From Chromatiales bacterium (GTDB lineage Bacteria; Pseudomonadota; Gammaproteobacteria; SZUA-140), in NCBI GenBank assembly GCA_050486285.1, contig JBJHCZ010000004.1:88196-152195 (forward strand): a stretch of DNA of 64,000 nucleotides, in the 5' to 3' direction. The translations under genes and the position numbers were made by a program. Below are positions 4,711 through 53,848 of this stretch, in pieces. Position 1 is the first letter of the stretch; every line of letters starts with the position of its first letter. The notes under the pieces are model-generated. The model saw only the letters and a program-made list of their open reading frames with translations. It searched no databases and was not told the origin of the DNA.

Positions 4711-6246
4711 ATGAACGCGATTGAGCTCAACATCTTCGCCGGCCGCATAGGCGCCATCTGCGACGAGATGGGCGCGGTGCTGCGCCGCGTCGCGCTGTCG
4801 CCGAACATCAAGGACCGGCTCGATTTCTCCTGCGCGGTGTTCGACGCGGCCGGCGAGCTGTGCGCGCAGGCCGCGCATATCCCGGTGCATCTCGGCAGCA
4901 TGGCCTACGCGATGCGCGCGATCGTCGATCGCGAACAGTGGTCGCCCGGCGACATGCTGATCGTCAATGATCCCTATCTCGGCGGCACGCACCTGCCCGA
5001 TGTCACGGTCGTCGCGCCGGTCTTCGCGGGCGATACCCTGATCGGTTTCGTCGCGAATCGTGCCCACCATGCCGACATCGGCGCGCAGACGCCGGGGTCG
5101 ATGCCGGTGTCGCGGACGCTGGCGGAGGAGGGCCTCGTGATCCCGCCGACCTTCATCATGCGTCGCGGCGTCGTCGATGAGGCCGTGCTGGCGGGGATCG
5201 CGCGGGCGACGCGCTGCCCGTGGCAATGCCGCGGCGATTTCGCGGCGCAACTGAGCGCGAATCGCCGGGGCGTCGAGCGGCTTGAAGGGCTCGTTCGCGC
5301 AGTCGGCATCGACGGCTGGCGCGAGGGCGTGCGGCGACTGAACGACTATGCGGAGCGGCTCGCGCGCGGCGCGCTGTTGGAGATCCCGGACGGCGTGTGG
5401 CGTTATCGCGAGGTCATGGATGACGACGGCGCCGGCGCCGTCGACATTCCCGTCGAGGTCACGGTCGAGGTCGATGGCGCCGACATCCATGTCGATTTCA
5501 CCGGCACCGCCGCGCAGGTCGCCGGCAATATCAACTGCCCGCTGTCGGTCACGGCGGCGGCGGTGTTCTACGCGTTTCGCTGCCTGATGCCGCCGGAGAC
5601 GCCGGCCTGCGCCGGGGCGCTGCGTCCGCTCGAACTCGCGGCGCCCGAGGGTTGTCTGCTGAACGCGCGGCGCCCGGCGGCGGTCGCGGCCGGCAACGTC
5701 GAGACCGGCACGCGCGTCGTCGATGTGATCTTCGGCGCGCTGGCGCCGGCGCTGCCTGATCGCATCCCGGCCGCGAGTCACGGCAGCATGAACAACGTCG
5801 CGCTCGGCGGGCGCGGCGCCGGCGCGGCTTGGGACTACTACGAGACCCTGGGTGGCGGCATGGGCGCGGGGGCATCGGGTGGAGGGCTCGATGCGGTGCA
5901 GACGCATATGACGAACACGCTGAACACGCCGATCGAGAGCGTCGAGCTGCATTATCCGCTGCGCATCCGGCGCTACGCGATCCGTCGCGGTTCTGGCGGC
6001 GCCGGGCGCCGACGCGGCGGCGACGGGCTGGTGCGCGAGTACGAATTCCTCGCGCCGGCGACGGTGACGCTGATCACCGAACGCCGGCGCCATGTCCCCT
6101 GGGGGCTCGCGGGCGGTGGGCCCGGGCGCGCCGGCGAGAACCGTCATAACGATCGCGTGCTGCCGCCGAAATGCAGCTTCGACGTCGCCGCCCTCGACCG
6201 GGTCACGGTCGAGACCCCGGGCGGCGGCGGGTGGGGCGAGGTATGA
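4711..6246 (+). CDS. hydantoinase B / oxoprolinase family protein (HyuB-type)
   Basis: 511 aa; HyuB hallmark segments ([21 protein letters not shown], gly-rich C-terminus); no adjacent HyuA-type partner. Confidence 0.8.
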
Positions 6247-6376: not shown

Positions 6377-6706
6377 ATGGATGTCATGGAACGTATCAGG
6401 CAGCAGGTCGAGGGCCACCCGATCGTGCTGTACATGAAGGGGACCCCCGAGATGCCGCAGTGCGGTTTCTCGAGCTACACCTCGCAGGCCCTGCGCGCCT
6501 GCAACGCGCAGTTTCACCACGTGAATGTCCTCGAGGATCCCGAGATCCGCCAGAATCTGCCGCGTTACGCGAACTGGCCGACCTTCCCGCAGCTCTACAT
6601 CAACGGCGAACTGGTCGGCGGCTGCGACATCGTGCTCGAACTCTACCAGAGCGGCGAGTTGCAGAAGCTCGTCAACACCGCCCGCGCCAATTCGGGGTCA
6701 GAGTAG
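6377..6706 (+). CDS. grxD: Grx4-family monothiol glutaredoxin
   Basis: Internal start MDVMERIRQQ; CGFS active site, PIVLYMKG, WPTFPQLYINGELVGGCDIV; colinear with E. coli GrxD. Confidence 0.9.
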   Translation: MDVMERIRQQVEGHPIVLYMKGTPEMPQCGFSSYTSQALRACNAQFHHVNVLEDPEIRQNLPRYANWPTFPQLYINGELVGGCDIVLELYQSGELQKLVNTARANSGSE

Positions 6707-6726
6707 ACTGCGTCTACTCTGACCCC
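6694..6726. terminator. perfect 15-bp stem / 3-nt loop hairpin spanning the convergent stop codons of grxD and rnt (putative bidirectional terminator)
   Basis: GGGGTCAGAGTAGAC-TGC-GTCTACTCTGACCCC read directly; no strong U-tract on either side. Confidence 0.45.
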
Positions 6727-7340
6727 GTTAGAATTCCCCAGCGGTTCACGATCGCGCAGAACAGTTCCGCGGTCTGCTCGGCGTCGTAGACCGCCGAGTG
6801 CGCCTCGCGCGCATCCCATCCCAGCCCCGCCGCCTGCAGCGCGCGCGCGAGCACGGTCTGGCCATAGGCGACGCCGGCCAGCGTCGCGGTGTCGAAGGTG
6901 CTGAATGGATGAAACGGATTGCGCTTGATCCTTGCGCGTTCCGCCGCCGCGTTGATGAAATTGAGGTCGAGGATCGGGTTGTGGCCGACGAGGATCGCGC
7001 GCGTGCAGCCCGTCTCGCGGATCGCGCGCCGGATTGCGCCGAAGATTTCATCGAGGGCCTTGCGCTCGTCGACCGCGCCGCGAAAAGGATGCCAGGGATC
7101 CTCGATGCCGTTGAAGGCCAGCGCCTTCGGATCCAGATTCGCGCCGTCGAACGGCAGCACATGATGCGCGATCGTCTCGAGGCGGCGCAGCTGGCGGTCT
7201 TCGTCGAAACCGACCAGTACCGCCGCGACCTCGAGCAGCGCATCGGTGCGGTGATCGAAGCCGCCGGTCTCGACATCGACGACGACGGGGAGGAAGCCGC
7301 GGAAACGCGCGGCCATTGCCGGGGATTGTACGGTGGTCAT
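6714..7340 (-). CDS. rnt: ribonuclease T
   Basis: 208 aa; DVETGGF (DEDD exonuclease motif I), colinear with E. coli RNase T (RFRGF, NPFHPF, HSALYD). Confidence 0.9.
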
Positions 7341-49227: not shown

Positions 49228-50319
49228 ATGGCAGAGACCTCGCGACTGCAGGTCGAAATGGCGATCAAGGGGTACGTCGACCCCTATCTGGGCAAGGATC
49301 TCGTGTCCGCGTCGGCGGTGCGGGACATCGTCGTCGACGGCCGCCGCGCGCGCGTGCGTATCGCGCTCGGCTTCCCGGCGCGCGGCTATCACGACGCGCT
49401 GCGCGCGGCGCTGCGCGCGCGCATCGAAGCCATCGACGGCATCGACGGCGCCGACATCGAGATCGACAGCAGCGTGATCACCCACGCAGTGCAGAAGGGC
49501 GTCAAGCCGATCCCGAACATTCGCAACATCATCGCCGTCGCCTCCGGCAAGGGCGGCGTCGGCAAGTCCACGACGGCGGTCAACCTCGCGCTCGCGCTCG
49601 CCGCCGAAGGCGCAACCGCCGGCATCCTCGACGCCGACATCTACGGCCCCAGCCAGCCGCGCATGCTCGGCTCGAAAGAGCGCCCGAAATCGATCGACGG
49701 CCGCTCGATGGAGCCGGTCATCGCCCACGGCATCCAGTCGATGTCGATCGGCTACCTCGTCGACGAGGAATCGCCGATGATCTGGCGCGGCCCGATGGTG
49801 ACCCAGGCCCTCGAACAACTACTGCGCGAGACCCGCTGGCAGCCGATGGACTACCTCGTCATCGACCTGCCCCCCGGCACCGGCGACATCCAGCTCACAC
49901 TGTCGCAGAAGATCCCGGTCAGCGGCGCCGTCATCGTCACAACCCCGCAGGACATCGCGCTGCTCGACGCGCGCAAGGCGCTGAAGATGTTCGAGCGCGT
50001 CGACGTCACCGTGCTCGGCATCATCGAGAACATGAGCATCCACGTCTGCAGCCAGTGCGGCCACCAGGAACCGATCTTCGGCGAGGGCGGCGGCCGCGCG
50101 ATGGCCGACCAGTATCACGTCGATCTGCTCGGCCAGTTGCCGCTCGACCGCCGCATCCGCGAAGAGGCCGACGGCGGCAACCCGAGCGTCGTCACCGACC
50201 CCGACAACGCGATCGCGCAGGCCTACCGCGAGATCGCCCGCAAGGTCGCCGCGAAGCTGTCGCTGCAGGCCAAGGACTACAGCGCCAAGATCCCGAACAT
50301 CGTGATCGAGCAGACCTGA
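49228..50319 (+). CDS. apbC: iron-sulfur cluster carrier ATPase (Mrp/ApbC/NBP35 family)
   Basis: 363 aa; N-terminal DUF59-like domain, Walker A SGKGGVGKST, CSQCGH motif; divergent from metG as in enterics. Confidence 0.9.
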   Translation: MAETSRLQVEMAIKGYVDPYLGKDLVSASAVRDIVVDGRRARVRIALGFPARGYHDALRAALRARIEAIDGIDGADIEIDSSVITHAVQKGVKPIPNIRNIIAVASGKGGVGKSTTAVNLALALAAEGATAGILDADIYGPSQPRMLGSKERPKSIDGRSMEPVIAHGIQSMSIGYLVDEESPMIWRGPMVTQALEQLLRETRWQPMDYLVIDLPPGTGDIQLTLSQKIPVSGAVIVTTPQDIALLDARKALKMFERVDVTVLGIIENMSIHVCSQCGHQEPIFGEGGGRAMADQYHVDLLGQLPLDRRIREEADGGNPSVVTDPDNAIAQAYREIARKVAAKLSLQAKDYSAKIPNIVIEQT

Positions 50320-50342
50320 GAGTCGAGCGACTGCCGAGGCGA

Positions 50343-50456
50343 GTGTCCGGGCGGGGGTTGCCTGTGACAGGACCCTCGGCCGCAGGGATGCGGCCGTGGA
50401 GCCTACAGGGACGTATTCACGGCGTGTCCTGTCACAGGCAACCCCCGCCCGGACAC
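50343..50456. repeat. long perfect inverted repeat: 31-bp stems (50343-50373 / 50426-50456) around a 52-nt spacer containing a smaller hairpin, between apbC and dcd
   Basis: GTGTCCGGGCGGGGGTTGCCTGTGACAGGAC ... GTCCTGTCACAGGCAACCCCCGCCCGGACAC read directly. Confidence 0.75.
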
Positions 50457-50491
50457 GGATTCAGAACCACAATACAGGATAACGAATGACC

Positions 50492-51058
50492 ATGAGCATC
50501 AAGTCAGACCGCTGGATCCGCGAGATGGCCGAGAAGCACGGCATGATCGAGCCGTTCGAGCCGCGCCAGGTCAGGGAGAACAAGGGCGGCAGCGTGATCT
50601 CCTACGGCACCTCGAGCTACGGCTACGACATCCGCTGCGCCGACGACTTCAAGATCTTCACCAACATCAACTCCGCGGTCGTCGACCCCAAGAACTTCGA
50701 CTCCAACAGCTTCGTCGACATCCGCTCCGACGTCTGCATCATCCCGCCGAACTCCTTCGCCCTCGCGCGCACCGTCGAATACTTCCGCATCCCGCGCAGC
50801 GTCCTCACCATCTGCCTCGGCAAGAGCACCTACGCGCGCTGCGGCATCATCGTCAACGTCACCCCGCTCGAACCCGAATGGGAAGGCCACGTCACCCTCG
50901 AGTTCTCGAACACCACGCCGCTGCCGGCCAAGATCTACGCCAACGAAGGCGTCGCCCAGGTCCTGTTCTTCGAATCGGATGAAGTCTGCGAGACCTCGTA
51001 CGCGGACCGCGCCGGCAAGTACCAGGGCCAGCGCGGCGTCACCCTGCCCAAGGCCTGA
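50492..51058 (+). CDS. dcd: dCTP deaminase
   Basis: Start [22 protein letters not shown]...; near-colinear with the Pseudomonas-type Dcd as I recall it. Confidence 0.9.
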
Positions 51059-51210
51059 CGTCGTTAGCAGGCAGTTGAAAGCGCCCGGCGGGTTTTCTCC
51101 GCGAATGGCTCGCCTCGCTGCCGCTGCGCGGCACCCTTCGGGCTCCGGCGAGGCTGCGCTTGACTTCGCTGCGTAAACCCGCCGGGCGCTTTCAACTGCC
51201 TGCTAACGAC
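51059..51210. repeat. long perfect inverted repeat: 35-bp stems (51060-51094 / 51176-51210) around an 81-nt spacer with internal secondary hairpins, between convergent dcd and DUF3108 gene (overlaps DUF3108 stop)
   Basis: GTCGTTAGCAGGCAGTTGAAAGCGCCCGGCGGGTT ... AACCCGCCGGGCGCTTTCAACTGCCTGCTAACGAC read directly. Confidence 0.75.
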
Positions 51211-51973
51211 CGCGCTCGATCGCCGATACCGTCACCGCGACCATGCGCCGATCGCGATGCTGTTCCAGCCGCACCGGCAGATAGCCGAGGTCGATCGCGC
51301 ACCAGATCACCGTGCGGCGATCACCATGCATGCGCTCGAGCTTGATCGTCTTCAGCCGGCCGACCGGCGTACGCAGTTCCTCGCGACCGACGACCTCGTA
51401 GCGGTATATCTTGAGTTCGCCGCCGTCGGCGACGTGGTACTCGCGACCGATCCCGCCGTCCTGCATGTCCAGCATCATCGTGTACTGGTAGAGCAGCTTG
51501 TCCTGGGCGTCGTCCGGAATCTTCATCTGCCACGGATCGTTGTTCACGGTATTCGTCACCGAACCCCGGTCCCAGTCGAAATCGAGCACGACGTGACGCT
51601 CATCCTTGCGTCCGGTATGGTGATACTCGTACTTCAGCGGGCGCGGACGCTCCGCCACATATTCCCAGATGCTGCGCTCGACGATGTGGTCGCGCAGCAC
51701 CGTTGACAGGAAGCCGGCGGGCTTCGAGACCGATTCGAGGACCCAGGTGCCGTTGGCGCCGCGGCGCAGGCTGCGCTCCATGCGCGCGAGCAGCATCGAG
51801 TTGTGCCTGACCTCGTAACGGACCGTGAAGGGTTCGAGCGGCGCGGCCGCCTCGACCGCGGGCGGCCAGGCCGGGAGCAACGCGAGCGTCACGGCGACCG
51901 CCGCCGCGCGCAGCAGGACGCCGCCGGCGTGGTCAGCCCGGGCTGGCGTCGTCATGGCCGGCCTGCGGTTCAC
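51203..51973 (-). CDS. DUF3108 domain protein (secreted)
   Basis: 256 aa with signal peptide; this family commonly sits upstream of purN in gammaproteobacteria. Confidence 0.55.
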   Translation of the reverse strand: MNRRPAMTTPARADHAGGVLLRAAAVAVTLALLPAWPPAVEAAAPLEPFTVRYEVRHNSMLLARMERSLRRGANGTWVLESVSKPAGFLSTVLRDHIVERSIWEYVAERPRPLKYEYHHTGRKDERHVVLDFDWDRGSVTNTVNNDPWQMKIPDDAQDKLLYQYTMMLDMQDGGIGREYHVADGGELKIYRYEVVGREELRTPVGRLKTIKLERMHGDRRTVIWCAIDLGYLPVRLEQHRDRRMVAVTVSAIERGR

Positions 51974-53688: not shown

Positions 53689-53848
53689 GGGAGTGCGTTC
53701 TTGTTGCGTGATTCGGGGTGTCCGCGAGCCGCAATTGTAACCCATATCCCGGTGGCAGGGACACCGTGGAACGCCTCCTTGAGCAGCGGCGTGTAGTCCG
53801 GATGGTGGCCATGCGGTATCATGCAGCGTTTGCGCCGGTGGATGCAGA

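Follow-up and report, generated by a model that had tools for sequence, protein, structure and literature searches.

The 64-kb stretch of DNA analyzed here (the window), whose source lineage is uncultured Chromatiales, carries in the spacer between the genes apbC and dcd a palindromic element, E1, which belongs to a family of dispersed hairpin repeats numbering well over 100 copies in many Gammaproteobacteria. In this family a 52-nt centre is about 90% conserved across gammaproteobacterial orders, and the arms that flank it are unrelated between genomes. Small dispersed palindromic repeats are common in bacteria and are usually lineage-specific, with the transposase-recognized ends as their conserved part. 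In the E1 family this arrangement is reversed: the ends are free to vary, while the centre is conserved across orders, folds on one strand, and holds two copies of what looks like an optimal CsrA/Rsm ligand. We tentatively interpret E1, from its sequence, as one copy of a non-autonomous dispersed hairpin element with a putative dual CsrA/Rsm-binding module, an interpretation that could well prove mistaken. The parts of E1 are as follows.

50343-50456, + strand: E1 as a whole unit (P1 stem and 52-nt core); the GGA-bearing strand is the + strand, in the same sense as apbC and dcd.
50343-50373, + strand: 5' arm of P1, 31 nt, 100% complementary to 50426-50456; its sequence may vary if pairing is kept.
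50426-50456, + strand: 3' arm of P1, 31 nt, pairing with 50343-50373.
50374-50399, + strand: P2, a 10-bp hairpin (core positions 1-26), with CsrA-like site 1.
50401-50423, + strand: P3 region, with CsrA-like site 2; pairs G28-C50, C29-G49 and N30:N48.

An inverted-repeat search recovered the arms as an earlier, sequence-only reading of this DNA had described them (31 nt, 100% complementary, with 52 nt between), and the smaller hairpin that it had noticed inside the spacer, GGCCGCAGGGATGCGGCC, was located at 50378-50395. Its emphasis on the stem did not carry over, the conserved and informative part being the 52-nt spacer. The 171-nt E1 region folds at -104.2 kcal/mol, compared with -63.2 +/- 4.3 kcal/mol for dinucleotide shuffles (z = -9.5); with the covariation and the compensatory arm changes described below, this bears out the broad suggestion of a structured nucleic acid. 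Apart from E1 and a second palindrome beyond dcd, E2, the window has no long, closely spaced inverted repeats. The arm sequence of E1, which contains the palindrome CCTGTGACAGG, has no further match in the window at up to three mismatches (chance expectation 0).

Membership of a dispersed family emerged from a blastn sweep of the fetched loci, which located a second E1-type core at 14448-14567 of L002, a relative of the source lineage, in the spacer between the divergent genes purM and DUF2066. This copy lies 3.3 kb from the E1 orthologue of L002, has unrelated 34-nt arms with exactly 52 nt between them, and shows a compensatory swap of G-C to C-G in the inner hairpin; its site is empty in another relative, L003, and in the window (53700-53800). 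When one genome per species was scanned, the core pattern GCAGGGATGC-N10-20-ACAGGGAYGTAT matched at least 119 stretches, and among the matches listed the named hosts are all Gammaproteobacteria. Among these hosts are Legionellales, Methylococcales, Lysobacterales, Chromatiaceae, Ectothiorhodospiraceae, Thiotrichales, Sedimenticola, many Pseudomonadales in the wide sense, Aeromonadaceae and Pantoea; Marinobacter, Halopseudomonas pelagia, Pantoea leporis and Methylocucumis oryzae are among them as cultured hosts. Nearly all of the matches have a core of about 52 nt within a near-perfect stem whose length is about 20-50 bp (median 29). A covariance model (R1), built from 49 cross-genome copies, recognized E1 as the sole true member in the window (102.5 bits) and found about 25 additional copies in the fetched loci, some of them in tandem arrays (L038) or head-to-head pairs (Pantoea). 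Several copies per genome occur in Methylocucumis oryzae, Ca. Thiosymbion, L038 and L093. Because arms are alike among the copies within one genome (Ca. Thiosymbion, Methylocucumis oryzae) and always adjoin a core, the repeated unit within a genome is the arms plus the core.

The sequence-only reading had named what would count against it, namely a unique element with no conserved structure and no other copies; E1 has three orthologues and a wide family. No family match was obtained in IMG/VR viral contigs, E. coli genomes or plasmids. The family is apparently undescribed and uncatalogued so far: in the literature searched, neither the core sequence nor any link between CsrA and dispersed repeats was found, although coverage was incomplete and an earlier description is possible.

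E1 is present at the identical apbC-dcd site in L001, L002 and L003, three relatives whose ApbC proteins are 95%, 93% and 92% identical, respectively, to that of the window. Across these orthologues the 52-nt spacer is almost invariant. The arms differ at 1-5 of their 31 positions, and the changes are mirrored on the opposite arm, transversions included, with a single G.A in L001 as the sole exception; for example, GGCGGGGGTTGCC/GGCAACCCCCGCC of the window becomes GGCAGAAGATGCC/GGCATCTTCTGCC in L003. Pairwise divergences at the locus are as follows.

Fourfold-degenerate sites of apbC: 0.15-0.31.
Fourfold-degenerate sites of dcd: 0.30-0.45.
E1 core: 0.04-0.10.
E1 arms: 0.03-0.16.

Among the orthologues, the core has evolved three to four times more slowly than the fourfold sites. 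The remaining apbC-dcd spacer is unalignable, save for GGCGA on the 5' side of the stem and GGAT(T)CAGAACCAC on the 3' side. In relatives whose ApbC is 78% identical, just 27-32 nt separate apbC and dcd, and E1 is absent. Given this absence and the low divergence among the orthologues, the insertion of E1 took place in the ancestor of a narrow Chromatiales clade, and purifying selection has maintained the element since. A metagenome scan for additional E1 orthologues returned six chance matches only.

Throughout the family, the outer stem (P1) encloses P2 (core positions 1-26, 10 bp), an unpaired A27, P3 (positions 28-30 with 48-50) and an unpaired G51-U52; P3 in turn encloses a UAC-AGGGAY-GUA hairpin and an unpaired UUYAC. 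On the alignment, 95.7% of cells pair as this structure specifies (96.9% in P2), compared with 64.3% in shuffles, and the covariation score is 0.77, compared with 0.16 in shuffles and about 0.1 in slid controls. Both-sided changes occur at all 16 inner P1 pairs and at 7 of the 10 P2 pairs. RNAalifold independently recovers P1, P2 and the UAC/GUA hairpin. It does not recover the 3-bp P3, so that the evidence for P3 is the tally at N30:N48 (C:G 54, G:C 6, U:A 6, G.A 20). A predicted three-way junction is thereby supported for the core. In E1 itself, the P2 hexaloop AGGGAU lies at 50384-50389 (GGA at 50386-50388) and is closed by a C-G pair, with the conserved U3.Y24 mismatch in its stem; the small hairpin of site 2, UAC-AGGGAC-GUA, lies at 50404-50415 (GGA at 50409-50411) and is followed by the unpaired UUCAC at 50416-50420. 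Beyond the loops, several unpaired or mismatched positions are conserved across the family: A27 (in 85 of 86 copies), UUYAC, G51-U52 and U3.Y24. A tandem G.A/A.G at core positions 5-7/20-22 recurs in several unrelated lineages (CGGAGGC...GCCGACG, GTGAGGC...GCCGAAC), and may be a sheared-GA motif that is tolerated or functional in P2. The Rfam scan that the sequence-only reading had proposed returned no family at the gathering threshold for E1, and below that threshold a likeness to long hairpins only (miRNA precursors, Ysr224).

The strand that folds can be told from the mismatches in the arms and core, which were tallied by register, once per arm lineage, position and type, over 37 lineages. 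Read on the GGA-bearing strand, there are 51 G.U against 12 A.C mismatches (p = 7e-7), and 62 purine.purine against 21 pyrimidine.pyrimidine mismatches (p = 8e-6), the purine.purine class including the recurrent tandem G.A in P2. As a symmetric duplex or cruciform would give equal mismatch counts, it is the GGA-bearing strand that is under selection to fold. A symmetric DNA palindrome or cruciform had been suggested by equal G:T counts in minimum-free-energy folds and by the scarcity of G.U pairs, and was overturned by the register-based tally; the protein-binding cruciform site raised by the sequence-only reading is contradicted by the same asymmetry. These data also bear on whether the element is a generic stable palindrome (a bidirectional terminator, a 3'-end stabilizer, or a site for RNase III, gyrase or cruciform formation) in which the core reflects recent common descent, an explanation we consider very improbable. 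It would account for a very stable stem and for the intergenic placement of the elements, including between convergent genes, and there are known repeats, Correia and ERIC among them, that modulate mRNA via RNase III or RNase E. However, recent descent leaves the cross-order conservation of the core amid complete arm turnover unexplained; the core also evolves slowly relative to fourfold sites, a U-tract is missing, and the strand asymmetry excludes a symmetric duplex or cruciform as the sole constraint. An intrinsic terminator was ruled out, with no T run after P1 family-wide and nothing terminator-like at 50200-51300. On the other side of the stem, about half of the copies have A as the base directly 5' of P1, and the stem mostly begins with G; a run of at least four A stands before the stem in 10 of 79 copies, compared with an equivalent T run after it in 1 of 79, so that the minus strand of such copies would resemble a hairpin with a U-tract.

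The resemblance of the core to CsrA/Rsm sites lies in both its loops and their spacing. The CsrA consensus from SELEX (ligands evolved systematically through exponential enrichment) is RUACARGGAUGU, in which ACA and GGA are invariant, and in most of the selected ligands GGA sits in a loop of six nucleotides, AC and GU being paired in a short stem. RsmE recognizes an ANGGAN hexaloop. A single CsrA dimer bridges two sites 10-63 nt apart, and in the leader of glgC a hairpin of high affinity tethers CsrA, letting it bridge to the ribosome-binding site. Both small hairpins of the E1 core show A-N-GGA-N hexaloops closed by C-G (AGGGAU and AGGGAY), and core positions 30-41 read N-U-A-C-A-G-G-G-A-Y-G-U, which agrees with the SELEX consensus at 10 of 12 positions in the window and at 12 of 12 in L001 and L003; site 1 has GCA where the consensus has ACA. 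The GGA centres are 23 nt apart, within the 10-63 nt range, and this spacing is fixed in nearly all copies. In the copies found by the covariance model, which are free of pattern bias, the loops vary only as AGGGA, AUGGA, ACGGA and AAGGA. No named host listed lies outside the class for which the Csr/Rsm system is best known. Furthermore, some variants are enlarged, with 50-100 nt in place of the P2 loop (L063 3182-3317, L073 7024-7149, L093 3952-4130, L071 1447-1582): the L063 variant contains four GGA sites, of which three fall in predicted loops, the L073 variant gains GGUAC-AGGGAU-GUACC, and the L093 variant gains several GGA motifs.

If the GGA strand is made as RNA, the long stem would present the junction as an autonomous domain, one CsrA/RsmA dimer could bind both loops of the core, and the element would act as a portable CsrA tether or sponge; the 31-bp duplex could double as an RNase III or exonuclease-blocking feature. 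The wider proposition, that a mobile pan-gammaproteobacterial hairpin family spreads a putative high-affinity dual CsrA module as a transposable tether or sponge, with the stem as both mobility structure and scaffold, seems to us doubtful. The surroundings of E1 at the apbC-dcd locus are as follows.

49228-50319, + strand: apbC, the upstream gene (iron-sulfur cluster carrier, Mrp/ApbC family; 363 aa).
50338-50342, + strand: GGCGA block directly 5' of P1, kept in 4/4 orthologues (flank alignment).
50457-50470, + strand: GGATTCAGAACCAC block directly 3' of P1, kept in 4/4 orthologues (flank alignment).
50474-50480, + strand: ACAGGAU, Shine-Dalgarno-like and containing GGA, before the dcd start.
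50492-51058, + strand: dcd (dCTP deaminase), the downstream gene (PF22769 DCD, 188 aa in relatives).

Gene identities were taken from the Pfam tables of orthologous loci and from the NCBI name ApbC for homologues; the apbC product is 100% identical to P0001, and exact look-ups of the window Dcd and ApbC proteins found nothing. In-frame ATGs of dcd occur at 50486 and 50492, six bases apart; relatives begin at the second (MSIKSD...), and 50492 is the probable start. The Shine-Dalgarno-like AGGA (50476-50479) has a better spacing for the first ATG (50486). A GGA in the region equivalent to the dcd Shine-Dalgarno sequence is present in L001 and L003 and missing in L002. The last bases of P1 together with GGATTCAGAACCAC read CACGGAU, a third single-stranded A-N-GGA. 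The GGCGA block on the 5' side is specific to this locus and lies outside the family consensus, other family copies having different flanks. A scan of 50200-51300 showed no promoter-like or terminator-like site between apbC and dcd, so that E1 probably lies inside an apbC-dcd co-transcript, in the GGA-sense orientation, with its end 30-36 nt before the dcd start. Such a transcript would carry E1 in the sense orientation, then the single-stranded CACGGAU(U)CAGAACCAC and the GGA-bearing Shine-Dalgarno region before dcd, an arrangement that by analogy resembles the glgC leader. The translation of dcd or the stability of its mRNA could then come under CsrA control of the glgC type, with the high-affinity hairpin bridging to the ribosome-binding site.

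If CsrA does bind the core, the family would be the first mobile carrier of binding sites for the Csr system, and would offer a means of fast rewiring of a global post-transcriptional regulon; any transcript hit by an insertion could fall under Csr/Rsm control. The elements would also jointly buffer free CsrA and would be candidate CsrA antagonists in Chromatiales, Methylococcales and Thiotrichales, orders for which we know of no described Csr small RNAs (sRNAs).

Several observations weigh against a CsrA/Rsm module. The conserved UUYAC, A27, G51-U52 and U3.Y24 are not explained by CsrA. The L071 enlarged variant gains an antisense-type inverted P2-like hairpin with an AUCCCU loop. No Rfam homology to CsrB, RsmY or RsmZ was found for E1 at E <= 10 or for 12 loci at the gathering score, and the GGA enrichment in the flanks is weak, too weak to use. 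Within the ~1 Mb of fetched sequence no csrA was seen, which is uninformative. In tandem gene contexts, copies with the GGA strand co-oriented with and opposed to their neighbours number 17:16 by crude calls and 16:11 after filtering by GC content at third codon positions (GC3), and neither promoters nor U-tracts are enriched family-wide over a mirror-image control. Copies opposed to their neighbours also show the mismatch asymmetry (23 G.U against 5 A.C; 15 against 1 in co-oriented copies), which indicates that the constraint is the element's own and not that of its surrounding host transcript; selection through read-through host transcripts is accordingly not supported. Additionally, single-stranded DNA also tolerates G.T and G.A best, so that the strand signal is no proof of RNA. 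What remains is either an RNA made independently of the neighbouring genes or a strand-specific single-stranded DNA intermediate.

Alternatively, the core could be a structured non-coding or cis-acting RNA domain whose junction binds a partner other than CsrA (a protein, a ligand, or an RNA via the GGGA loops). Strong covariation and strand-specific mismatch tolerance would suit such a domain, as would the recurrent tandem G.A in P2, which is typical of folded RNA, and the strict conservation of the unpaired A27, UUYAC and G51, plus U3.Y24, reaches beyond the GGA loops. Nevertheless, an unrelated RNA domain finds no Rfam match, orientation preference, promoter, terminator or candidate partner here, and because the rule of C-G-closed A-N-GGA-N loops is the known CsrA/RsmE rule, it is the less economical explanation; we regard it as improbable.

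In the main rival account, the core would be a single-stranded DNA recognition module for a strand-specific enzyme acting in trans (HUH/Y1, of the RAYT or IS200/IS605 type), with the long stem and the two sub-hairpins folding on one DNA strand during transposition and the likeness to CsrA sites coincidental. The mobility data are compatible with this account. Target-site duplications, which the sequence-only reading had proposed to look for, are no more frequent than chance, the flanking direct repeats of 59 elements matching a shuffled-flank control. In the one filled-versus-empty comparison (L002 14448-14567 against L003 and the window), the junctions fit a TA duplication (aggcaTA...TAggccg) and are not conclusive. 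A search within 2.5 kb of about 120 copies found no recurrent transposase, and the only recurrent neighbours are housekeeping genes. The lack of duplications would fit HUH-type single-strand transposition, and neither duplications nor an adjoining transposase would be expected of trans-mobilized peel-and-paste elements. The fold of one strand is selected whatever the orientation of neighbouring genes, and the elements lie at random with respect to gene direction; they are extragenic units of about 100 bp that have persisted at orthologous sites and are limited to Gammaproteobacteria, much like repetitive extragenic palindromic (REP) sequences paired as REPINs. IS200/IS605 elements carry left-end and right-end hairpins, which the two similar same-strand hairpins of the core may recall by analogy.

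Other properties of the family fit poorly with a single-stranded DNA module. REP sequences are not the same from species to species and evolve together with their RAYT, and the REPIN spacer is variable, whereas here the centre is about 90% conserved and the arms are free. The GTAG-like tetranucleotide of the minus strand is really GTAN, in which N is a covarying paired base. No replication-coupled orientation bias was seen relative to local GC skew (36:40, in a crude test), unlike the lagging-strand targeting of IS200/IS605. Moreover, this account predicts neither loops that vary only as A-N-GGA nor enlarged variants that add GGA hairpins. We judge it rather unlikely; if correct, it would define a new class of trans-mobilized element with unusually deep conservation.

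The core was also considered as a small unit that inserts into pre-existing palindromes, or whose arms are copied from target DNA. Both ideas were rejected, because the arms always lie beside a core and are shared within a genome, and because the empty sites (L003, window) are without arm sequence. Family members occur in the cysS-folD spacer of both L076 (5635-5746) and L082 (about 4920-5040), in opposite orientations and with unrelated arms, where CysS is only 66% identical, and copies in L028, L030 and L106 also adjoin cysS or folD. These represent either a repeated insertion site or an ancient copy whose core can flip between its own inverted arms.

Some members of the family are clustered. 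In L038, tandem arrays of two and three members (158-388 and 4732-5127) have a spacing of about 150 nt and one orientation, and resemble clusters of bacterial interspersed mosaic elements (BIMEs). Two Pantoea species share a locus (L018 4034-4276, L045 2512-2753) at which two members sit head-to-head, about 75 nt apart and about 90 nt away from a tRNA gene. L046 has a pair of GGA hairpins that lack a stem, 30 nt upstream of a tRNA gene.

The second inverted repeat beyond dcd that the sequence-only reading had pointed out is present in the window, as follows.

51060-51210, no strand: E2, a palindromic insertion with arms at 51060-51105 and 51165-51210 (46 nt, 93% complementary) and a 59-nt spacer.

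The possibility that E2 is a diverged member of the E1 family was rejected, as R1 does not detect it; E2 is a separate, lineage-specific palindromic insertion, unrelated to the E1 family. E2 folds with z = -10.3, and its spacer forms a small three-way junction in which one hairpin has a C(UUCG)G loop and none has a GGA loop. It is absent from L002 and L003, in which the gap between dcd and the DUF3108 gene is 15-21 nt, and it has no plasmid match. The DUF3108 gene takes its stop codon and roughly its last two codons from the right arm of E2, the protein length being unchanged. Elsewhere in the window, a perfect 16-bp hairpin occurs at 6693-6727 (CGGGGTCAGAGTAGAC-GC-GTCTACTCTGACCCCG). This hairpin and a palindrome at 2291-2377 of L003 (36-nt arms) have GGGGTCAGAGT in common on both arms, and the motif was found in no other fetched locus. 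The 6693-6727 hairpin may represent a third small palindromic repeat family of this Chromatiales clade.

Compared with known classes of element, E1 conforms in part to the REP/MITE-like palindrome proposed by the sequence-only reading: it is a repeated palindrome with more than 100 copies, yet it fails to resemble MITEs (miniature transposable elements with inverted repeats) in its duplications and REPINs in its pattern of conservation. Terminal inverted repeats of 20-50 bp are present, but unlike typical ones they are not conserved between genomes. The family is multicopy and polymorphic for presence and absence (the second copy in L002; E1 absent from distant relatives). A MITE was rejected on the chance frequency of target-site duplications. 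A REPIN is defined as two inverted, conserved REP sequences with a highly variable spacer, and both REP and REPIN were rejected since a conserved spacer with varying arms is the reverse pattern. The internal arm palindrome expected of a REP (~14 bp) is seen in E1 and not in the second L002 copy (L002b), L076 or most copies. A REP with a GTAG head on the minus strand (...CUGUAGGC followed by the hairpin) was likewise rejected, as the fourth base is the complement of the covarying paired position 30 (C, G or U). The likeness to REPINs consists of extragenic hairpin units of about 100 bp that are multicopy, non-autonomous, without target-site duplication, persistent at orthologous sites and found mainly in Gammaproteobacteria. 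The differences are that E1-family arms have no internal palindrome as a rule, that the GTAG-like motif is not invariant, and that no RAYT was seen beside E1-family copies, although none would be expected beside most.

The Correia elements of Neisseria (CREE/NEMIS) are the closest functional analogue: an inverted repeat surrounds a conserved core to which a host protein (IHF) can bind, RNase III binds or cleaves the hairpin in the transcript, and adjacent-gene expression is affected by the element. Correia elements differ in their conserved 24-26 bp terminal repeats, TA duplication and restriction to Neisseria, whereas the E1 family has variable arms and no duplication signal; in addition, the Correia core site is that of a DNA-bending protein, while the E1-family core resembles the site of an RNA-binding protein. 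The CIR elements of Caulobacter are similarly intergenic, conserved between species, and expose a protein-recognition motif in the terminal loop of the predicted fold. Unlike the E1 family, however, they are alphaproteobacterial, the motif is a GANTC methylase site on DNA, and two arms and a linker take the place of a long-stem three-way junction. Integron attC sites offer a further analogy, being imperfect palindromes of about 60-140 nt that act as a strand-specific folded single strand, the long ones with a branched tip. In attC sites the hairpin base holds the conserved boxes and the tip varies, whereas in the E1 family the conserved part is at the tip, and neither an integrase nor a cassette array occurs at the E1 loci examined.

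The CsrA/RsmA sites and the sRNAs CsrB/CsrC and RsmX/Y/Z form the last comparison. The E1 family differs from these sRNAs in having no homology to a curated family, mostly two sites, a long perfect stem, and a dispersed, multicopy distribution in both orientations, with its own promoter or terminator not detected and its binding predicted. Like them, it is gammaproteobacterial, presents C-G-closed A-N-GGA-N loops at a spacing within the range of one dimer, and includes variants with three to four hairpins.

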